DNA of 64,000 nt, from positions 10,873 through 74,872 of the forward strand of contig RFHH01000119.1 of the NCBI GenBank assembly GCA_003696075.1, in the 5' to 3' direction. Shown here in pieces: positions 53,524-64,000 of this stretch. The first letter of the stretch is position 1; every line of letters begins with the position of its first letter. Origin of the DNA: Acidobacteriota bacterium (lineage in GTDB: Bacteria; Acidobacteriota; Polarisedimenticolia; J045). Below the pieces are notes generated by a model. The model was not told where the DNA came from. It searched no databases and saw nothing but the letters and a program-made list of their open reading frames with translations. The translations under genes were made by a program, and so were the position numbers.

Positions 53524-56500
53524 TCAGGGTGTCTTCACCGGAGCCTCCGGCCTCGGAGGTCGGACCACCGGGTGGGCCTCGATCGCTCGCATCACCTCCT
53601 GAACGGCTCGCTCGAGCTGCGGGTCCCGCCCTTCGATCAGCGATTTGGGATCGTTCTCCACCTCGATGTCGGGATCGACGCCGTGCCCCTCGATCACCCA
53701 GTGCCCTTCCGCGTCGGCCGTGCCCGCTTCCGGAACGTAGATCGTTCCGCCGTCCATCAGCGGCGCCCGGCCGTAGATGCCGACGACGCCGCCCCAGGTG
53801 CGCTTTCCGATCAGCGGACCGAGTCCCGCGGCGCGGAACACGTAGGCGAACTGATCGCCGTCCGACGCCGTGTCCTCGTCGATCAAGCAGACCAGCCGGC
53901 CAGGGAACACTCCCGTCGGGTACGGATCCCAGTAATCGCGGTTCCGCTCGTAGTCGATCATCAGCAGCTTTCGGCTGAGCCTGTCGATGATCATCTGGGA
54001 GACGTTGCCTCCGCCGTTACCCCTGACGTCGATCACGAGCCCGTCCTTGTCGAGCTGCGGGTAGTACCACTTGATGAACTCCTGGATGCCGCTGGCGCCC
54101 ATGTCGGGAAGGTGCAGGTAGCCGACGCGCCCCCCGCTGAGCTCGGCGACACGCTCCCGGTTTCGGGTGACCCATTCGAGATAGATGAGAGAGGCCTCCG
54201 ACCGAATCGGCCGGTACACCGCCTTCCTCGCCCCTTCGAACGTCGGCTTCTCGTTCACGGTGAGCACGACGGGGCCACCCGCACGATTGCGCAGCACCCG
54301 GTAGGGGTTCTCGTCCGCCGTCAACTCCTCCCCGTCGATCGCGAGCACGTAGTCGCCTTCCCGAACGTCAACACCGACCTCCGTCAGCGGGGAGCGGTAC
54401 TTGGGCTCCTCGTTCTGGCCCCGGAAGATCTTCACGATCCGGTAGCGTCCGGCCTCGGCGTCCAGCGCGAAGCGGGCGCCGGGAAGGGCGACCGACGGGC
54501 GCTGTGGCAGGCCGAGATCGCCGCCCGCCACGTAGGCGTGCCCCACGTTCAGTTCCGCGATCATCTCACCGATCACATAGTTGAGATCGGAGCGGTGCGC
54601 CACGTGATCGAGCCACGGGCGGTACTGCTCCCGCAGTGCCTCCCAGTCATAGCCGTGCATGTTCTCCACGTAGAAGAAGTCGCGGTACCGCCGCCAGACC
54701 TCGTTGAAGATCTGACGCCACTCGAGAGCCGGGACCCTCCACACCTTCAGGCCGGACGTCGAGACATCCTTGGCCTTTTCAGGGCCATTGGGATCGGCGT
54801 CGAAGACATGAAAACCGGAGTCGTCTCTCACCAGGACCTTCCGGCGGTCCGCCGAGAGCGCGTAGCCCTTGACCCCCGACAGGAGCTTGGAAGCCTTCCT
54901 CTTCTCGAGATCGAAATACTCGAGGGTCGGCGGCACGTCGGTTTCGCGGCCATAGTAGTCGGCGCCCGACGTGACGTACAGGAGTCCTCCCTCGACGGCC
55001 GACAGGCCGTCGATGTTGCCGGCCTCGATCGGGATTCGGACAACGCGGTCGGCGAGGCCGTCGAAGTCGACGCGGACCTCCGGAAGCCCTTTCTTCTCTC
55101 CTTCCTTCTTCTTCTTGTCCGCCGCGCCGGCCTTCTCTTCTTCCTCGGGGGGCAGTGCCGACTCGACCTCGTCGATCCTCGGCGGCACAGGGCTCGGCGT
55201 GTCCTTTGCCAGCGCCAGGGCGAAGACCCCCGTCTCGCGGTCGAGAACGTAGTTCCACTCGATCGAGCCGAGTTGCGGAGCGAAGTCGCGATCGGCGAGG
55301 AAGAAGAGGTACTTGCCCTCGGGTCCCCAGACGGGGTTCCTCTCGTTGAAGAGCCGGCTCGTGACGCGGTGCGACCTCCCGGTCTCGGCCTCCCAGATGA
55401 ACAGGGAGCGGCGGTCGTTCGTCTCGCCCAGGCTGTAGGCGAGGAAACGCCCGTCCGGCGACCAGTCGGGATCGAGACCGAAGGGCTGCGGGTCGTCGGC
55501 GACAAGGCGCACCCGGTGCGAGTCGAACTCGTAAACGTAGAGGCGGCCTGCCTGGTCGTGATAGGCGATCCTCTTGCCGTCCGGCGACCAGACGATCCCC
55601 TCCAGATAGGCACGGTGCTCCTCGGTGAGCTTGACCGGATGTCCCTCGCCCGACGCCGGCATCACGTAGAGCTGGTCCTCCCCGTCGCGGTCGGAGATGA
55701 ACGCCACCCGTTTGCCGTCCGGCGAATAGCGTGCGGAGCGGTCGTGGGCCCCAGGCGACCGCGTCAGATCGATGGTCCGGCCGTGCTCGACCGGCGTCGA
55801 GAGCACCTCTCCCCGCGCCACGAACAGCACCCGGCGCCCCTTGGGGCTGAGCGAATAGTCCTCGATGTTGCGGGAAGCGTCGACGTACCCCGGGCGCATC
55901 CACACGCCGTCGTGGGGGACCGTGATCGGGACCTTGTGCTCCTCCCGCGTCTCGACGTCGAGCACGTGGAGTTCGCCGTTCAGCTCGAACACGATCCGGC
56001 GCTCGCCATCGGTTGCCGGCCACCGAACATCCCACGTCTCGAACCTGGTGATCGGCTCGATCTCCCGCGTTTCCAGATCGAAGCGGTAGATGTTGTTCTT
56101 GCCGCTCCGGTCGGACGTGAAGTAGATCGCATTGCCGATCCACATCGGATCGCGGTCGGACCGGGGATGGCGTGTGATGCGCTCGATCTCATAGGTATCG
56201 AGGTCGAAGATGTACAGCTCCTGGGCCCAGCCGCCCTCGTAGCGCTTCCAGGTGCGGAAATCGCGCACCAGCGGAGAGTAGACGACGCGCCGGCCGTCCG
56301 GCGACAGGTCGGCGCAACCCGCGTAAGGAAGCGGAAGCGCCTCCGGAAGCCCGCCCTTCGGGCTCACCGTGTACAGGCGGCTGTCCGTCAGCCCATAGGA
56401 GTCCCGCAGCGACCTGAAGAGGATGCGGCTCCCGTCCGGGGTCCAGCCGTAGACCTGGTTGTCGTAGCCCCAGCGGGGCGGGAGGGGGCCACGTGCAGGG

Positions 56501-56820
56501 TAGAACGTGAGCTGCTTCGGCACTCCTCCGCCGGCCGGCATCACGTAGACCTGTTCGTCGCCGTCGTACTGGCCCGTGAACGCGATCCACTTCCCATCGG
56601 GCGAGAAGCGGGCGAACAGTTCCAGCCCGGGGTGGCTGGTCAGGCGGACCGCGGTGCCTCCCTCCACCGGCGCCGACCAGAGATCACCGGCGTAGGTGAA
56701 CACGATCCGGTTCCCGTGGATGTCGGGAAACCTGAGGAGCTTCGTCTGGGCGGCGGCGGCCGTCACCGCCAGAAGGAAAACCAAGACACCGGCCGAAAGA
56801 CGGAAGCGGGAACGCCACAT
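53524..56820 (-). CDS. Tricorn protease homologue (S41 family; beta-propellers + PDZ + S41 peptidase domain)
   Basis: 1098 aa with a signal peptide. Repeated FSPDG and WSPDG propeller blades, then a PDZ and S41 C-terminal domain. Confidence 0.9.
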   Translation of the reverse strand: MWRSRFRLSAGVLVFLLAVTAAAAQTKLLRFPDIHGNRIVFTYAGDLWSAPVEGGTAVRLTSHPGLELFARFSPDGKWIAFTGQYDGDEQVYVMPAGGGVPKQLTFYPARGPLPPRWGYDNQVYGWTPDGSRILFRSLRDSYGLTDSRLYTVSPKGGLPEALPLPYAGCADLSPDGRRVVYSPLVRDFRTWKRYEGGWAQELYIFDLDTYEIERITRHPRSDRDPMWIGNAIYFTSDRSGKNNIYRFDLETREIEPITRFETWDVRWPATDGERRIVFELNGELHVLDVETREEHKVPITVPHDGVWMRPGYVDASRNIEDYSLSPKGRRVLFVARGEVLSTPVEHGRTIDLTRSPGAHDRSARYSPDGKRVAFISDRDGEDQLYVMPASGEGHPVKLTEEHRAYLEGIVWSPDGKRIAYHDQAGRLYVYEFDSHRVRLVADDPQPFGLDPDWSPDGRFLAYSLGETNDRRSLFIWEAETGRSHRVTSRLFNERNPVWGPEGKYLFFLADRDFAPQLGSIEWNYVLDRETGVFALALAKDTPSPVPPRIDEVESALPPEEEEKAGAADKKKKEGEKKGLPEVRVDFDGLADRVVRIPIEAGNIDGLSAVEGGLLYVTSGADYYGRETDVPPTLEYFDLEKRKASKLLSGVKGYALSADRRKVLVRDDSGFHVFDADPNGPEKAKDVSTSGLKVWRVPALEWRQIFNEVWRRYRDFFYVENMHGYDWEALREQYRPWLDHVAHRSDLNYVIGEMIAELNVGHAYVAGGDLGLPQRPSVALPGARFALDAEAGRYRIVKIFRGQNEEPKYRSPLTEVGVDVREGDYVLAIDGEELTADENPYRVLRNRAGGPVVLTVNEKPTFEGARKAVYRPIRSEASLIYLEWVTRNRERVAELSGGRVGYLHLPDMGASGIQEFIKWYYPQLDKDGLVIDVRGNGGGNVSQMIIDRLSRKLLMIDYERNRDYWDPYPTGVFPGRLVCLIDEDTASDGDQFAYVFRAAGLGPLIGKRTWGGVVGIYGRAPLMDGGTIYVPEAGTADAEGHWVIEGHGVDPDIEVENDPKSLIEGRDPQLERAVQEVMRAIEAHPVVRPPRPEAPVKTP

Positions 56821-56916
56821 GGACCGAGCCCTCCATCCCGCCGCGGGGCGCGACGTCGACAGGGCGCGCGATTCTATCGCGGTTCGCGGCCGCCCGCTCC
56901 GGAGGAAGGGACCGAC

Positions 56917-57872
56917 TCAGTCGTACCGGACCTCCCGGACGGCACCCTGCGAGCGGAACCACGCGATCGTCCGCTCGAGCCCTTCCTCGAGCGGTGTGCG
57001 CGCCGACCAGCCCAGCAGGCGTCGGGCCCGGGTCACGTCCAGGCAGCGGCGAGGCTGGCCGTCGGGCTTCGACGGATCCCACCGGAGCCGCCCGCGGTAG
57101 CCCACCAGCCGCGCTATCGTCTCTGCGAGTCGCCGGATCGTGATCTCCTCGCCGGTTCCCAGGTTGATCGGAACCGGATCCTCCATCGTCTCAGCCGCGG
57201 CGAGAATCCCCTCCGCCGCGTCGTCCACGTAGAGGAACTCCCGCGACGCCTCCCCCGTTCCCCAGCAGACGACCTCGTCCGCTCGCGCGTCCGCCGCGGC
57301 GCTCATCTTGCGGATCAAGGCCGGTATCACGTGCGACGTCTCCAGGTCGAAGTTGTCACCGGGACCGTACAAGTTGACCGGAAGAACCACGGCGCTTCGC
57401 AGCCCGTATTCCCGCCGGTAGGCATCCAGCATCACGATCAATGCCCTCTTGGCGATCCCGTAGGGGGCGTTGGTTTCCTCGGGGAATCCGTTCCACAGGT
57501 CCTCCTCCCGGAACGGTACCGGCGTGTGCTTCGGGTAGGAGCATACGGTGCCGACCTGCACGAATTTCCGGATACCCCGCTTTCTGGCGTGCTCGATGAG
57601 ATGAAGACCCATCGCCAGGTTGGCGTAGAAGAAGCGACCTGGGTGGGCGCGGTTCGCGCCGATGCCGCCCACCTCCGCGGCCAGGTGGATCACGACCTCG
57701 GGACGGGCCACCTCGAAGAGCCGCTCGACGTCCTGCTCCCTGGTGAGATCGAAGTCGCGGCGCCGGGGGACGAACGGCTGGCCGCCGCGCGCCGCCAGCA
57801 GCCGGCAGACGGCCCGGCCGAGAAATCCTGCGCCGCCCGTGACAGTGACCCTCGTTCTCCTCCAGTCGAGCT

Positions 57873-57876
<4 letters not shown>
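56917..57876 (-). CDS. fcl: GDP-L-fucose synthase (GDP-4-keto-6-deoxy-D-mannose 3,5-epimerase/4-reductase)
   Basis: Alignable to Fcl throughout ([23 protein letters not shown]…[24 protein letters not shown]). The GTG start overlaps the gmd stop (GTGA). Confidence 0.85.
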
Positions 57877-58973
<1,097 letters not shown>

Positions 58974-59076
58974 GCCGCCTCCGCTCGGGGCCCCGCGGGA
59001 CCTTCCGGATGCCGGGGGCCCCGCTGGCGGGAGAATACCCCCTCCCGAAGGCCGCCGGCGAGCGGCCCCGGGGCCG

Positions 59077-59092
59077 TGTCACGACCATGACA
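59077..59092. promoter_or_regulatory. Perfect palindrome TGTCA-N6-TGACA in the divergent gmd/desaturase intergenic region
   Basis: tgtcacgaccatgaca, 80 nt upstream of the desaturase ATG. Candidate operator for a dimeric helix-turn-helix regulator. Confidence 0.3.
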
Positions 59093-59172
59093 TAGCCATG
59101 CCAGGATCGTTTCGACCCGCGGGGGCCCACAACGCCGGCCCTGACTCGCGGGGCGACACGAAAAGACCGAGG

Positions 59173-60333
59173 ATGAGCAAGATGCTTTCGAATCCGTTGT
59201 TCCAGGGACTTCTTCCCCTCCCTTGGTGGGGATACGTCCTGGTGGCCCTCGCGATGACCCACATGACGGTCGTCGCGGTGACGATCTTCCTCCACCGCGC
59301 CCAGGCGCACCGCTCGGTGACGCTGCACCCGGCCGTCGAGCACGCGCTGCGCTTCTGGCTTTGGCTCACCACCGGGCTCCGGACGAAGGAGTGGGTGGCC
59401 GTCCACCGCAAGCACCACGCGAAGGTGGAGACCGCGGACGATCCGCACAGCCCGCGCGTCAAGGGGCTGTGGAAGGTCGTCTTCGGCGGCGTCGGCCTGT
59501 ACCGTGCGGCCGCTGCCGACCCCGAGACGCTCGCGACCTATGGCAAGGGAACTCCCGACGACGCGATGGAGCGGAGGGTTTACGCCGCCCATCCGATGCT
59601 CGGCATCGTGTTGATGGCCGCCGTGGACCTGGCGCTGTTCGGCGCGGCGGGCGCCTTGATCTGGATCGTTCAGATGATCTGGATTCCGTTCTGGGCTGCG
59701 GGCGTGATCAACGGGATCGGCCACCGCATCGGCTACCGGAACTTCGACACCCGCGACGACTCCTCGAACATCGTTCCGTGGGGAGTGATCATGGGCGGTG
59801 AAGAGCTCCACAACAACCACCACGCCCGCCCGGGCTCCGCACGCCTGTCGCACAGGTGGTTCGAGCTGGACATCGCCTGGATCTACCTCCTGGCCCTCGA
59901 GCGCCTCGGACTCGCCCGCCTCCGGCGTCCCCGGCAGGCACGGCCCGCGCCGGCGCCCGACGGCGCCGCTGCCGCCGCGAAGCGCTACGCGGCCGAGGTG
60001 CTGCTGCCGGCGCTCCGCGAGGAGCTCTCCCGGGCCGAGGGAGCGGTACGCGCCATGCTGGCCCGGTGCCAGGAAGAACTCCAGCGCAACCCGCTGGGAC
60101 CGGCCCCGACAGCCGAGCGCCTGGAACGGGCAGAAGAGGTCGGACCGGCGGTGCGCGCCATGCTCGCCGCCAGGCGCCGGCTCGTCGACGCGTGGAAGCG
60201 CGCGTCGCGAGGCGCCGCCGACGGGCGGGCTGCGATCGAGGAATGGCTGGAGACCGCCGAGCGGAGCGGTGTCGAGATGCTCGAGCGGTTCGCGGCCGGC
60301 CTGCGACTCGACATGGAACTCGAGCGCACCTGA
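59173..60333 (+). CDS. Acyl-CoA (stearoyl-CoA) delta-9-type fatty acid desaturase
   Basis: Three His boxes HRAQAHRS, HRKHHA and HNNHHA, and four TM helices. ATG 59173 with a GAGG Shine-Dalgarno sequence. C-terminal ~110 aa helical extension. Confidence 0.85.
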   Translation: MSKMLSNPLFQGLLPLPWWGYVLVALAMTHMTVVAVTIFLHRAQAHRSVTLHPAVEHALRFWLWLTTGLRTKEWVAVHRKHHAKVETADDPHSPRVKGLWKVVFGGVGLYRAAAADPETLATYGKGTPDDAMERRVYAAHPMLGIVLMAAVDLALFGAAGALIWIVQMIWIPFWAAGVINGIGHRIGYRNFDTRDDSSNIVPWGVIMGGEELHNNHHARPGSARLSHRWFELDIAWIYLLALERLGLARLRRPRQARPAPAPDGAAAAAKRYAAEVLLPALREELSRAEGAVRAMLARCQEELQRNPLGPAPTAERLERAEEVGPAVRAMLAARRRLVDAWKRASRGAADGRAAIEEWLETAERSGVEMLERFAAGLRLDMELERT

Positions 60334-60387
60334 GCCGCCCCCGGGCGGCATCCGCCGCGCTCCCAACCGCGCAAACCCGGATCGCCC

Positions 60388-60419
60388 GAAGCCGCCGGCG
60401 CTCTTGCTCCGGCGGCTTC
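60388..60419 (+). terminator. Perfect 11-bp GC-rich stem-loop downstream of desaturase (U-tract-less terminator candidate)
   Basis: gaagccgccgg-cgctcttgct-ccggcggcttc, 55 nt after the stop. It is followed by two further hairpins at 60423-60444 (gcgttca/tgaacgc) and 60486-60502 (ccgcggc/gccgcgg). Confidence 0.35.
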
Positions 60420-60520
60420 GCTGCGTTCAGATGAGGTTGAACGCAAGACTCCGGCGGACCCGCGTCGACGCAGCCTCCGTCGGTACCGCGGCGTTGCCGC
60501 GGCGCGGGAAGGGAGGTTGC

Positions 60521-61303
60521 ATGAACGATCGAATCCTTGCGGCGCGGAGGGCCATCCGCGCCGGCGCGATCGGGCTTTGCCTCGCGTCGCTCGGCACTCC
60601 CACCGCCCTGCTCGCCTGCATCCGGACCGACAGGGACAGCGAAACCACTTATACCTGCCAGATCGCCGGCCGGCCGATCAGCCTGGGGCTCTCGGTGGAC
60701 AGGAGTTCGAAAGACGAGGCCGTCGAGCGCGCGCTTCTTCGAGAGGGAGATCGCGTGCTCCTGGAGGCGGTGCTGACGATCACCCGGAGCGGCCTGAGGT
60801 TCGCGGGCCGCCTCGACGAAGACCCCTTTGTCTGGGCGGCCGAGTCCCGTTGGCCACACCGTGTGGTCTCGACGAGATCGTGGGGCGATCTCCGCCTCTC
60901 GGCGGAGGTCGACGAAACGCCCGCGGGAACGCTCACCGTCCGCCTGACCGAAGGGGATCTCGGGGCTTACCTTCTCCTCGTGAGCGGCCGGACGGCGTCC
61001 GCGGTGCTCCAGGCGGTGGAATGGATCGCCGCCGAGGCCGCGCCCGGAGATTTCCGGGTGCTGGCCCTCCGGTCCGCACTGAGGGGACTCACGATGGACA
61101 CGCACGGCGGAAGTCCCGTCGGACGATACCTCGGGTGCCTCGAGGACACGTGCAGGGCCTGCCGGGGATGCTGGGAGGGGGGCTGCCACTGCTGCCACGG
61201 CGACCCGTGGTGGGCCTGCGCCACGATCTGGACCTGCTACCTGGTCGGCTCCGAGCTCTGCGTGCTCCAGGAGATCAACGATCTCACGCCGAAGCTGCGG
61301 TGA
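60521..61303 (+). CDS. Lipoprotein with extremely Cys-rich C-terminal tail (hypothetical)
   Basis: GGGAGG Shine-Dalgarno sequence. Signal and lipobox (ALLAC). The C-terminal 45 aa are GCLEDTCRACRGCWEGGCHCCHGDPWWACATIWTCYLVGSELC (11 Cys). No family recognised. Confidence 0.55.
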   Translation: MNDRILAARRAIRAGAIGLCLASLGTPTALLACIRTDRDSETTYTCQIAGRPISLGLSVDRSSKDEAVERALLREGDRVLLEAVLTITRSGLRFAGRLDEDPFVWAAESRWPHRVVSTRSWGDLRLSAEVDETPAGTLTVRLTEGDLGAYLLLVSGRTASAVLQAVEWIAAEAAPGDFRVLALRSALRGLTMDTHGGSPVGRYLGCLEDTCRACRGCWEGGCHCCHGDPWWACATIWTCYLVGSELCVLQEINDLTPKLR

Positions 61304-61352
61304 GTGAGCTAGAATGAAGCGTTTTCCCGATTCCGGAGAGGAGGGTCCCTCC

Positions 61353-62252
61353 ATGATCCGGGTGCGGGGCTTGAAGTACCGGTATCGCGGGGGGTTCACG
61401 CTCGACGTGCCGAACCTCCACCTGCGTGCGGGGCAGGTGACCGCTCTCGTGGGACCCAACGGCTCCGGGAAGACGACGTTCCTCGGCCTGCTCGCGGGTC
61501 TCCTCAGGCCGGACGAGGGAAGCGTGGAGATCGGGGGGGAGCCGCTCGAGTCGGCTCTCCGGAGGCGGCGGGTCGCCGCCGCCTTCGACTTCCTGCCTCC
61601 GCAGTCCAATCTGCCCGCGTCGATCTGGATACGGACCCTGTCCCGGCTCCGCGCGGCGGATCCCGACCAACTCGCCCGCCTCGACCGCATCGTCCACGAG
61701 GACGGGATGGCCCCGTGGCTGAACCGCCCGCTGCCGCGGCTATCGGCGGGCCAGCGCCGGCAAGCGGCCCTGGCGATGGCGGTGATCGGGGATTGGGACA
61801 TCCTGCTGCTCGACGAGCCGTTCGCATCGCTCGACGCGGAGACGGCGGCGCGATGGATGCGGCGCATCGAGCGCTTCGCTGCAGCCGGGAAAACGATCGT
61901 CGTCAGCTCCCACCGGCTCCTCGAACTCGATCGCCTCGGGGACTGGTTCCTGTTCCTTCGCCAGGGCAGGATCCGGCACGAGAGCAGCAAGGACGATCTG
62001 GCGGCCTGCGACGAGATCCGGGTGGTGCTGCGCTGCAGCGAGGCCACGGCGCTCCGCATCCTCGGTCCGACGGCGATCCGCGAAATCCGTGCGGTGGCAC
62101 CGGGAGTCGTCTCGCTGATCGTCGACGGCCGGGTGGCCGGCGGGCTGGCGGGCGTTCTCAATCCCCTCGTGCGGGAAGGACTCGAGGTCCAGCGGATCGA
62201 ACCGCGGTTGACCGGACTCGAGCGAACCTACCATGAGGTCGGCCGTGCGTGA
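61353..62252 (+). CDS. ABC transporter ATP-binding protein
   Basis: Walker A GPNGSGKTT, signature LSAGQRRQ, Walker B LLLDEPFASLD. GGAGG Shine-Dalgarno sequence 8 nt upstream of the ATG. Confidence 0.8.
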   Translation: MIRVRGLKYRYRGGFTLDVPNLHLRAGQVTALVGPNGSGKTTFLGLLAGLLRPDEGSVEIGGEPLESALRRRRVAAAFDFLPPQSNLPASIWIRTLSRLRAADPDQLARLDRIVHEDGMAPWLNRPLPRLSAGQRRQAALAMAVIGDWDILLLDEPFASLDAETAARWMRRIERFAAAGKTIVVSSHRLLELDRLGDWFLFLRQGRIRHESSKDDLAACDEIRVVLRCSEATALRILGPTAIREIRAVAPGVVSLIVDGRVAGGLAGVLNPLVREGLEVQRIEPRLTGLERTYHEVGRA

Positions 62253-63051
62253 CGCCGAGCGGAGATTCGCCGAGCAGGCCCTTCGGATGGCCGCGACGGC
62301 GCGCCTGCTGGCGGAGGACCATCTCCGAAATCGGCGGCACCTGGTCGCGTTGCTGGTTCTGCTTCTCTTGTTCGCGCCCGTGTGGCTCGGCTACCTGTTC
62401 GCGGCCCCGGAAACGCGCCTGGAGGGACTGTTCAAGGCGCTCGACGGTTGGGCGTTCGTGACCGCCTTCTACCTCACCGGGGAAGCGGTGTCGCGCGAGG
62501 CGAGAACCGGGCGCTGGGCTCTGCTCCGCACCGCCGGCGTGCCTCCCGGGACCTTCTTCGTCACCGTGTCGTGCTTCTGGATCGCCGTCTTCCTCGGCCT
62601 GGCCTGGACGATGGGGGTGCTCCTGGGGGCCGCCCTGGGCGCGGGCACGGCGGCTCCCGCCGGCTCGCTGGCCATCGGGATCCTCGCCGCGCCGGTGCGG
62701 TATCTTCCGCTCGTCGCGCTCTGCCTCGCCTTGGGCGGCGTCCTTGCGGGGTGGCTGAACGTGGCGGCCTGTCTGGGACTGTTGCTCCTCGCCTTGGTGT
62801 TCGACTTTCTCGCCGACGTCGCGGGGTGGCCATCCGCTCCTGTCCGGATCATCGGCGGCCTCCTCTTCGCACGGCCGCTCCTCTCTCCCGCGGTCGGGGG
62901 CGCTCCCGTTCTGTACGCCGATTGGCCGTGGCGCCTCGCCCGCGCCGTGGCGGTTGCCATCGCCTATCTCGGCCTCGGGACGGCGGCGGTGAGATGGAAG
63001 ACCGGCGGCCGCGGACCGTTCCTACCGGCGCGAGGTCTCGGGAACGCTTGA
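62233..63051 (+). CDS. ABC-2-type transporter permease (hypothetical membrane component)
   Basis: 272 aa with about 6 predicted TM helices. Overlaps the upstream ATPase gene by 20 nt. Confidence 0.55.
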   Translation: MRSAVRDAERRFAEQALRMAATARLLAEDHLRNRRHLVALLVLLLLFAPVWLGYLFAAPETRLEGLFKALDGWAFVTAFYLTGEAVSREARTGRWALLRTAGVPPGTFFVTVSCFWIAVFLGLAWTMGVLLGAALGAGTAAPAGSLAIGILAAPVRYLPLVALCLALGGVLAGWLNVAACLGLLLLALVFDFLADVAGWPSAPVRIIGGLLFARPLLSPAVGGAPVLYADWPWRLARAVAVAIAYLGLGTAAVRWKTGGRGPFLPARGLGNA

Positions 63052-63313
63052 ACGCCCCCGGCGAAGAGCTGGGGCCCGGGGGTCCGGCTCGTGTCGAGCC
63101 GCCGTGCGCCGCCGGAGGGCTTCGCAACGAACCGATGGCCGGCGCCGCGCAATGGAGGCGAGGGCCGCGCGTGACAGGATCGGAACCGCTCCCCCGAGAC
63201 GGTTTCCCGGGGCGTTTCCGGGCGGGCCCGCAGCGGGGTGTGGCCGTTCGCAGGCATCCGCGGGCCGCGCGGCACGGGCTTCGCATGTCCCACGGGCACG
63301 GGGAGCGCTCGGC

Positions 63314-63766
63314 ATGAACGCGAACGGACGAGCCGGAACCGATCGCCCGGCTCCGCGCCCGGAGGCGGGAGGCGAAGACCGCGTTCTGGACAGGTGGCTA
63401 CGTCCAGGGACCACGGCCGGCACGGGCCGGGTCGCCTGGGCCCGGCTCGGGAACGAGGCCGCCGCGTTCCTCCGCCACCTTGCATGGCTGCGCCGGAGGC
63501 TCGCCGGCCCGGCGAAGTCCTCTCCCGTGCCACCGTCGCCGGCGCGCGCCGCCCGCGTTCGTTGCGACGGGTGCCGAAGGAGGTTCGCGACGTCCTGGGG
63601 CGTGGTCCGGGAGGCCCTGGTGGAGGGGGCCCCTCTCCACTGCGGGCATTGTGGCGACCGTCTCGAGGCGGTGACGATCGAGTGGAGGCCCGGAGAACTC
63701 GAGGAGATCCTGCGCTATCTGGCCGGGGGACACCCGGGGCCGGAAGGCCCCCGTGCCGGGCGCTGA
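63314..63766 (+). CDS. Hypothetical zinc-ribbon protein
   Basis: CDGCRRRF…CGHCGDRLE (CxxC…CxxC) near the C-terminus. The frame is open from 63104. Weak call. Confidence 0.3.
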   Translation: MNANGRAGTDRPAPRPEAGGEDRVLDRWLRPGTTAGTGRVAWARLGNEAAAFLRHLAWLRRRLAGPAKSSPVPPSPARAARVRCDGCRRRFATSWGVVREALVEGAPLHCGHCGDRLEAVTIEWRPGELEEILRYLAGGHPGPEGPRAGR

Positions 63767-64000
63767 CTCCGCGGACGTTATCGACGGCGATCCACGCGCC
63801 GACCCGAGGCGGGATCTCGGCGGAGCCGGGGGCTGCCGGCCCGCTCCGCGATCGCCGCCCCTGACCGGACGGGACGATTCCGCTTCGGGGAGCGGCCCAC
63901 CCACCGCCATCGCCGAGGGGCGAAACGAGGCGTAACCCACTAGAAATTAGCGGCTTGCAGAAACCGGCCGCGCGAAGGCCGCCCGTCCCGTATCTTGACC

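Follow-up and report, generated by a model that had tools for sequence, protein, structure and literature searches.

A rare secreted cysteine-rich protein and its linked ABC ATPase/membrane protein pair in an acidobacterial genome

What could be the reason for a bacterium to keep, directly before the genes of an ABC ATPase and of a hydrophobic membrane protein, the gene of a small secreted protein whose C-terminal end is crowded with cysteines? The question is raised by a trio of genes at positions 60521–63051 (+ strand) of a 64,000-nucleotide stretch of DNA from an Acidobacteriota bacterium (contig RFHH01000119.1 of assembly GCA_003696075.1, positions 10,873 to 74,872 of the forward strand), hereafter "the window". 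A first-pass annotation had seen here a cysteine-rich lipoprotein, possibly metal-sequestering, bacteriocin-like or redox-sensing, with a dedicated ABC pair. The comparison with distant relatives presented below shows that the trio is a conserved three-gene module made up of a secreted multi-cysteine protein and a divergent ABC ATPase/membrane protein pair. As to its function we lean, without giving this interpretation the better part of our confidence, toward an envelope module in which a divergent ABC-2 exporter has the cysteine-rich protein as its extracytoplasmic partner.

A conserved three-gene module

The G+C content of the window is ~70% and long open reading frames (ORFs) are therefore found in all frames. 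The 260-amino-acid (aa) ORF at 60521..61303 (+ strand, stop codon counted) is a real gene, its GC content at the three codon positions (0.66/0.57/0.85) resembling that of the neighbouring real genes, namely those of a tricorn-like protease, fcl, gmd, desA, the ATPase and the membrane protein (0.67–0.74/0.45–0.55/0.85–0.89). Its product has an identical entry at NCBI ([quoted passage not shown], from an 81-kb contig), whose gene call supports this start; so do the lengths of the relatives (254–299 aa), and a purine-rich ribosome-binding stretch (GGGAAGGGAGG, 60506..60516, + strand) precedes the ATG, which is at 60521, by 4 nt. The ABC ATPase (299 aa; 61353..62252, + strand), recognized by PF00005 (E = 1.6e-24) and by the motifs read in its sequence, most likely starts at 61353, i.e., 49 nt after the stop codon of the first gene (the ~50 nt of the first-pass annotation being confirmed), with its own GGAGAGGAGGG and a product beginning MIRVRGLKYRYRGGF; this start agrees with the N-termini of orthologous ATPases, and an alternative ATG is found upstream, at 61314. 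The gene of the membrane subunit (272 aa; 62233..63051, + strand), identified from hydropathy, which indicates ~6 hydrophobic helices, and from homology to the membrane proteins of other cassettes, overlaps that of the ATPase by 20 nt, the corresponding overlaps in the relatives being 4–20 nt. All three genes are thus real, as had been proposed. A promoter and terminator scan of 60200–63600 detected no terminator-like or sigma-70-like site, including between the genes of the trio, and neither this region of the window nor nine related loci contain an Rfam riboswitch or other Rfam RNA.

An exhaustive phmmer (HMMER) scan of 1.84 billion cluster representatives yielded 13 relatives of the 260-aa protein (E from 5.6e-25 to 2e-4; 23–42% identity), which, together with the window protein, make up the family alignment of 14 sequences. 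Two clades will be referred to: clade 1, consisting of the window protein, P0003, P0004 and P0005, and clade 2, consisting of P0006, P0010, P0012 and P0013. The cysteine-rich C-terminal domain is kept in all 13 relatives, and wherever the downstream DNA can be read the ABC ATPase is the next gene or the next but one. Indeed, the ATPase directly follows the cysteine-rich gene in seven cases (the window, P0003, whose downstream DNA was read on four contigs, P0004, P0005, P0007, P0008 and P0011), and a membrane protein of 251–254 aa overlaps the ATPase, by 14–20 nt, wherever the contig continues (P0003, P0004 and P0008). In clade 2 the next gene (P0006, P0010 and P0012) encodes a membrane-anchored, ResA/StoA/TlpA-like thiol-disulfide oxidoreductase having a WCAPC motif; where the contig is long enough, as it is for P0006 and P0012, an ABC ATPase comes next. 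For P0009 and P0013 the available sequence stops with the cysteine-rich gene, and no locus was fetched for P0014. Among the cassette ATPases identities range from 36 to 70%, those between the window ATPase and its counterparts in the other clade-1 cassettes being 42–45%, and homology can also be detected between the membrane proteins. Homologues without the tail or without ABC neighbours, which would have spoken against a dedicated pump, were looked for, and the conserved synteny upholds the earlier view that the ATPase/permease pair is dedicated to the cysteine-rich protein. A mere juxtaposition of three unrelated genes, with the tail as a lineage-specific oddity, is, in fact, hardly credible, since nine distinct members, at 23–42% identity, have this gene order, their ATPases and membrane proteins co-diverge and the start/stop overlap is conserved.

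One uncultured acidobacterial metagenome-assembled genome (MAG), GCA_964582785.1, contains two complete and divergent cassettes, that of P0008 (locus L012) and that of P0003 (L002/L003), both of which include an ATPase and a membrane protein of their own; they lie on contigs CAZOTT010000174.1 and CAZOTT010000193.1. The P0008 cassette is followed by genes for a 104-aa protein and for a protein with an RsbRD_N domain. A divergently transcribed regulator of the XRE helix-turn-helix/TPR type is present in clade 2 loci (L001 1446-3478, L009 4343-6527 and L020 3-1013, all on the − strand), and L001 and L009 share a conserved upstream repeat protein (210–294 aa; its two versions are 32% identical and match no Pfam family); 2–4 kb upstream, L009 also encodes a secreted protein of 120 aa and another ABC ATPase/permease pair. 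P0011 is split into two overlapping ORFs, one of 115 aa with the signal peptide and one of 145 aa with the cysteine domain, in both of its records, the ENA assembly and the Logan run (L022 2552-3333 and L023 2484-3265), a condition due either to a frameshift or to the gene being a pseudogene; upstream, the opposite strand carries a radical-SAM-like gene. P0014 (193 aa), in which an adenylate-kinase N-terminus (PF00406, E = 3.9e-20) is joined to a cysteine-rich domain lacking C206, is probably a chimera of assembly or gene calling.

The family is very rare. Word-index searches with the cysteine-rich protein, the permease and the family profile returned the query alone, plus P0012 with the profile, and degenerate-pattern scans of GTDB genomes and JGI metagenomes, based on the clade-1 alignment (that of the 14 sequences being too variable for pattern design), re-found the P0003 loci and nothing else. 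No match to the family was obtained by tblastn in plasmid and phage collections, and a literature search yielded nothing on such a family. Taxonomic labels are available for two sources only, both Acidobacteriota, and the G+C content of the family loci ranges from 61 to 74%. The 260-aa protein has no Pfam, NCBIfam or PADLOC family and no Pfam family was found in any relative except at the N-terminus of P0014; PDB searches with the single sequence and with the profile gave nothing meaningful (best E = 0.061), the matches to the AZUL domain of E3A (E = 0.12–0.24) being taken as chance. The statement that the protein matches no family that can be named was therefore correct.

The secreted protein and its cysteines

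The conserved C-terminal domain, delimited by the alignment and by the AlphaFold2 model, spans aa 199–250 (61115..61270, + strand) and contains, between aa 206 and 247 (61136-61261, + strand), a cluster that on inspection of the sequence holds ten cysteines in 42 residues (positions 206, 211, 214, 217, 222, 224, 225, 233, 239 and 247), together with two His and four Trp; the unusual tail of the first-pass annotation is thus genuine, whereas its count of 11 cysteines in 45 residues is not. Three further cysteines lie outside the tail, at positions 20, 33 and 46. The cysteine content of the whole protein is 5%, as opposed to 0.2–1.2% in six neighbouring proteins, and the tail is far from being a product of chance, its cysteine pattern being kept in the 13 distant relatives. 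The consensus of the domain is S-x-I-G-x-Y-L-x-C-L-x3-C-x2-C-x-G-C-W-x2-G-G-C-(H/G)-x-C-P-G-D-P-x-W-A-x6-C-Y-x2-G-A-E-x-C; residues C211, C217, W218, C222, C225, Y240 and C247 are invariant across the family, C206 is nearly so, and the core of the domain comprises eight cysteines. The mean pairwise identity is 45% in this domain and 20% in the rest of the protein.

The fold of the protein was predicted with AlphaFold2 on the basis of the 14-sequence alignment (model m965fcaae9e9c), with a mean predicted local distance difference test score (pLDDT) of 82.7; from residue 31 onward most blocks of ten residues score 81–95, the lower ones being residues 191–200 (64) and 251–260 (69). In the model ten consecutive strands form an up-and-down antiparallel β-sheet domain (aa 33–144; 60617..60952, + strand), three helices (aa 147–191; 60959..61093, + strand) join the sheet to the cysteine-rich domain, and the latter is a helix-hairpin-helix unit consisting of a helix (199–213), a short hairpin (217–223) and a second helix (230–259). 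Hydrophobic and polar residues alternate along the strands (e.g., 51–62), which suggests, in the predicted structure, a sheet having one face covered by helices. No significant fold match to the AlphaFold model was found.

The manner in which the cysteines vary within the family is informative as to their state. C214 and C239 occur together in ten sequences and are both missing from the other four, C224 and C233 occur in the window protein only, and C33 and C46 are restricted to clade 1, clade 2 being devoid of both the C214/C239 and the C33/C46 pairs; there are thus three independent changes in cysteine content, each of them involving a pair, and the mature window protein would hold 12 cysteines, an even number. 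On the other hand, no His is conserved, H223 being replaced by G, N, Y or V and H226 by Pro or other residues in the relatives. In the model C206-x7-C214 is situated on, and at the end of, helix 199–213 and C239-x7-C247 on helix 230–259, so that in an antiparallel hairpin C214 would pair with C239 and C206 with C247, a twin Cx7C staple consistent with the covariation; the predicted first hairpin places C33 opposite C46 (strands 33–38 and 41–48; 33+46 = 38+41). Because the cysteines change in pairs, no His is conserved and the signals are of the Sec type, the cysteines most likely form disulfides rather than metal or Fe-S sites, and the periplasmic thiol-disulfide oxidoreductase of clade 2 fits a client with many disulfides.

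Several cofactor-binding alternatives were considered and set aside. A metallothionein-like Cys/His domain is disfavored by the loss of C214 together with the distant C239, and not with its CxxC neighbours, and by the unconserved His residues. A c-type cytochrome haem site is disfavored by the presence of CXXCH (C222-H-C-C225-H226) in the window protein only, the relatives having mostly CxxCP; CcmA models score far below cut-off. A Tat-exported, ferredoxin-like Fe-S protein would not be expected to lack the middle cysteine of CxxCxxC, C214, as 4 of the 14 sequences do, nor to have lost RR from most of its signals, and a zinc-knuckle reading of the tail is contradicted by the lack of conservation of the motif. 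Since the twin-arginine motif is not conserved (RR is missing from most signals, namely those of P0003, P0004, P0005, P0007 and P0010), a cofactor inserted in the cytoplasm is unlikely.

The N-terminal export signal (aa 1–32; 60521..60616, + strand) was recognized from hydropathy, from low pLDDT and from the signals of the relatives; it has a basic n-region and a hydrophobic core, with a hydropathy peak at aa 14–35 and a pLDDT <50 for aa 1–28. The first-pass annotation had read a lipobox (ALLAC) and hence a lipoprotein. However, in the L-L-A-C33 of the window protein the Leu at −2 falls outside the strict [LVI][ASTVI][GAS]C pattern and a TPT interrupts the long h-region; the signals of the relatives are type-I-like and have no lipobox, the residues corresponding to those ending at C33 being VREC, VTEC and GATC in the clade-1 relatives P0003–P0005. 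In the closest relatives a good signal-peptidase I site precedes the cysteine equivalent to C33 by ~8 residues, no cysteine occupies this position in clade 2 or elsewhere outside clade 1, and C33 is always accompanied by a second cysteine 11–14 residues further on, C46 in the window protein. Because C33 is kept in a non-lipobox context and is opposite C46 in the predicted hairpin, its lipidation, which would make a C33–C46 bond impossible, is unlikely, and the protein does not appear to be a lipoprotein. We infer instead export by Sec and cleavage by signal peptidase I, the probable site being near CLA|S (aa 22/23), perhaps just after CLA22. The suggestion that the protein needs the ABC pump for its export likewise loses its ground, since a protein carrying its own signal peptide is unlikely to be exported by the pump.

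The ABC pump and the genes around the trio

The ATPase contains a Walker A (GPNGSGKT), a signature (LSAGQ), a Walker B (ILLLDE) and the His of the H-loop, and has a C-terminal extension of ~80 aa ending in LERTY. Residues 4–297 of the orthologous ATPase of locus L002 align to residues 3–300 of the 301 of GldA and its residues 25–297 to DrrA, with GldA/DrrA scores of 97–102 bits compared to cut-offs of 312–403; the window ATPase matches DrrA over residues 30–231 only. For the membrane protein, hydropathy and helix pattern indicate ~6 transmembrane helices. Two of its orthologues match the same region of PF12698 (ABC2_membrane_3), with E = 3.5e-4 and 1e-3, below the gathering score, and orthologous membrane proteins give further sub-threshold matches to PF13346 (4e-3) and PF12679 (0.06–0.6) (ABC2_membrane_2/_5). 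No solute-binding-protein gene was found in any locus, and PADLOC gave generic ATPase matches only. Given the full-length GldA/DrrA alignment of an orthologous ATPase, the weak ABC2_membrane matches of two orthologous membrane proteins and the lack of a binding-protein gene, "ABC-2-type exporter" is the best description of the pair, membership in any defined subfamily lying below thresholds; of the ABC-2 permease proposed earlier, the overlap, the ~6 helices and the lack of a binding protein hold, whereas an ABC2_membrane match at the gathering score does not. The cassette ATPases also have an unusual motif in the Q-loop region, F-(L/D)-x-F-P-P-(D/Q/S/T) (window 61590–61610), which reads FDFLPPQS in the window and FLDRFPPDS in clade-1 relatives, the usual Gln being replaced in most relatives.

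Directly upstream of the trio (58939–60333, + strand) is the gene of a DesA-family fatty-acid desaturase (NF049918, E = 2.3e-137, above cut-off), which carries a "DesA/ISL3 alpha-bundle tail" domain (NF049919) common to ISL3 transposases. The NF049918 match begins at residue 90 of the ORF and the Logan gene call is 383 aa long; the true start is probably downstream of 58939. Further upstream, the − strand (53524–58973) encodes a 1098-aa tricorn-like protease (PD40 repeats, Tricorn_C1, PDZ_Tricorn, Peptidase_S41) and then an overlapping gmd/fcl pair for GDP-fucose synthesis; these are ordinary genes, and in the loci of the relatives neither the protease nor gmd or fcl has a conserved link to the cassette. 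Beyond the membrane protein, the ~950 nt at 63052–64000 contain no confidently coding gene: the ORF at 63104–63766 (+ strand) has a zinc-ribbon-like CxxC...CxxC stretch and a codon-position GC (0.77/0.71/0.77) that is wrong for a coding sequence, and the ORF at 63398–63940 (− strand), with high GC3, would give a product rich in Pro, Arg and Gly having no Pfam match.

Possible functions and known systems

How, then, could the secreted protein and the pump work together? As the extracytoplasmic partner of the exporter, the protein would be exported by Sec without being lipidated and would undergo oxidative folding in the periplasm, acquiring in the case of the window protein six disulfides: C33–C46 in the first hairpin, the twin Cx7C staple C206–C247 and C214–C239 joining the two antiparallel helices, two bonds among C211, C217, C222 and C225, and the lineage-specific C224–C233. 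The sheet-plus-helix body would be a single rigid periplasmic unit working with the pump, in which the membrane subunit would probably dock on the cysteine domain, since this is shared by every member, and the fast-evolving sheet would confer specificity. The most likely job of such a unit would be to capture, to shield against or to hand on a hydrophobic or amphipathic compound expelled from the membrane by the exporter, along the lines of LanI with LanFEG or of LppX with DrrABC; in a variant of this mechanism, ATP would drive a conformational action on the periplasmic partner, as for NosD with NosFY.

Some points weigh against this interpretation. The partner role is drawn from gene order; the disulfide pairings derive from covariation and spacing, and each cysteine covariation is a single evolutionary event. 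As to the pump, the membrane protein of the window has no Pfam match even at E = 10, its single-sequence AlphaFold model is poor (pLDDT 56.6), and hhalign comparisons of the permease profile with the single sequences of E. coli CcmB and YbhR were uninformative. Furthermore, two of the properties of the family, namely that the cysteine-rich proteins of P0003, P0004 and P0005 are 29–37% identical compared to 63–70% for their ATPases, and that paralogous cassettes occur in one genome, fit a toxin/immunity pair equally well.

Indeed, the main rival, which we regard as rather unlikely, is that the protein is a toxin, or a bacteriocin-like protein, secreted and rich in disulfides, against which an ABC-2 pump makes the producer immune: its amphipathic, Trp-rich C-domain would be membrane-active, its N-terminal sheet would serve for targeting, and the pump would expel the active part from the membrane of the producer. 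A secreted protein that diverges far faster than its ATPase, with a conserved C-domain and a variable N-domain, in a sporadic and very rare family that is represented in one MAG by two divergent paralogous cassettes with separate pumps, would be in keeping with this proposal, and so would the XRE-TPR regulator of clade 2. Thiol-disulfide oxidoreductases and ABC immunity pumps accompany disulfide-containing bacteriocins, BdbA/BdbB of sublancin and LanFEG being known companions of this sort. Nevertheless, in a diderm a Sec signal leads to the periplasm only and no outer-membrane release system is linked to the cassette in any locus; there is no toxin-domain match and nothing emerged from the plasmid and phage collections or from PADLOC, and AlphaFold packs the tail confidently into a globular protein and not as a free peptide. 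A more far-reaching proposal, that the family represents an undescribed type of ABC-2-coupled envelope machine, taxonomically placed so far in Acidobacteriota only, is likewise unlikely; it would either convey cytoplasmic ATP hydrolysis via the minimal 6-helix subunit to a disulfide-stapled periplasmic protein of a new fold, or be a new class of Sec-dependent, multi-disulfide toxins, each with its private ABC immunity pump.

Less probable still is a periplasmic thiol-redox device in which C(G/H)xC would be a redox pair sensing or relaying oxidative or thiol stress, with the pump exporting a reductant or answering the signal, as with CydDC or TlpA. The pair C222-x-x-C225 is invariant, becoming CGPC in P0003 and P0005, and a ResA/TlpA-like oxidoreductase is encoded directly downstream in all three clade 2 members with readable DNA, but the motif is located in a short hairpin between helices and not in a thioredoxin fold, the pump has the DrrA/GldA architecture and is not of the fused CydDC type, and most cassettes have no oxidoreductase. 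We give even less credit to a protein sequestering Cu, Zn or Cd with a cognate efflux system, the first reading that the first-pass annotation had offered for the tail: the high cysteine density, the CxxC spacings and the two His of the window protein are offset by the paired changes of the cysteines, by the absence of conservation of either His and of both CXXCH and CxxCxxC (C214 being lost in four members), and by Sec-type signals leading to an oxidising compartment. The search for metal-responsive regulators nearby that had been recommended gave a negative answer, neither such a regulator nor a P-type ATPase, RND or CDF gene being conserved in any locus, and ABC-2 pumps are not known as metal exporters.

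The trio is a well-delimited, conserved module, a rare variant of a known design and not a mechanistic surprise. It adds a private partner, with no known family or fold match, to a recurring and poorly mapped design of ABC-2 pump plus partner, within a phylum that has almost no experimentally characterised envelope systems, and its eight-cysteine twin-Cx7C unit seems designed to be rigid in a periplasm that is oxidising and possibly hot. Should the partner bind a defined compound, or prove to be a toxin, a new family could be named and a function assigned to otherwise unclassifiable ABC pumps.

Among the known systems, LanI and LanFEG, represented by SpaI-SpaFEG and NisI-NisFEG, provide the immunity of lantibiotic producers (PMC4828448). 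They resemble the cassette in that an extracytoplasmic β-rich protein (~165–245 aa) stands beside an ABC-2-type set devoid of a binding protein, LanI and the pump having a common target, an amphipathic compound at the membrane surface. Unlike LanI, however, the cassette protein is probably unlipidated and contains a disulfide-rich domain that LanI lacks, and it has no sequence or fold match to LanI; a single membrane gene takes the place of LanE and LanG, and the host is a diderm with no lantibiotic genes nearby. Membership was rejected on the lack of a family match and on the lantibiotic-protection ATPase model, which scores 81–94 bits compared to a cut-off of 310.

NosD-NosF-NosY, with NosL, take part in the maturation of nitrous oxide reductase (PMC8457098, PMC6530538). 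Here, too, the gene of a periplasmic protein directly precedes those of an ABC ATPase and of a 6-helix ABC-2-type membrane protein; NosD, however, is a β-helix of ~400 aa and NosL a Cu(I) lipoprotein, the cassette matching neither family and having neither nosZ or other nos genes nor conserved metal ligands. Its predicted fold of sheet and helices, as opposed to a β-helix, and its neighbours (desA, gmd, fcl and the tricorn-like protease) led to the rejection of this membership. Cryo-electron microscopy work of 2022 on NosDFY reportedly indicates that the ABC part acts on the periplasmic partner and not on a classical solute.

In mycobacteria the ABC-2 exporter DrrABC and the LolA-like lipoprotein LppX serve the export of phthiocerol dimycocerosate (PDIM); the likeness would consist in the architecture of a DrrA-class ATPase and in a secreted sheet-and-helix protein proposed to receive a lipid from the pump. 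As far as the cysteine domain is concerned, CHCH domains and small Tim proteins are twin CxnC helical hairpins of the mitochondrial intermembrane space, and the common traits would be two antiparallel helices, each with C-x(n)-C, stapled by two disulfides in an oxidising compartment. The spacing in the cassette protein is, however, x7 and not x9 or x3, and an additional cysteine-rich hairpin is inserted between the helices; the comparison is an analogy only, the cassette protein being bacterial and periplasmic and having no sequence relation to these proteins. LanI/LanFEG, LppX/DrrABC and NosD/NosFY, to none of which the cassette belongs, may be regarded as its nearest working analogies.

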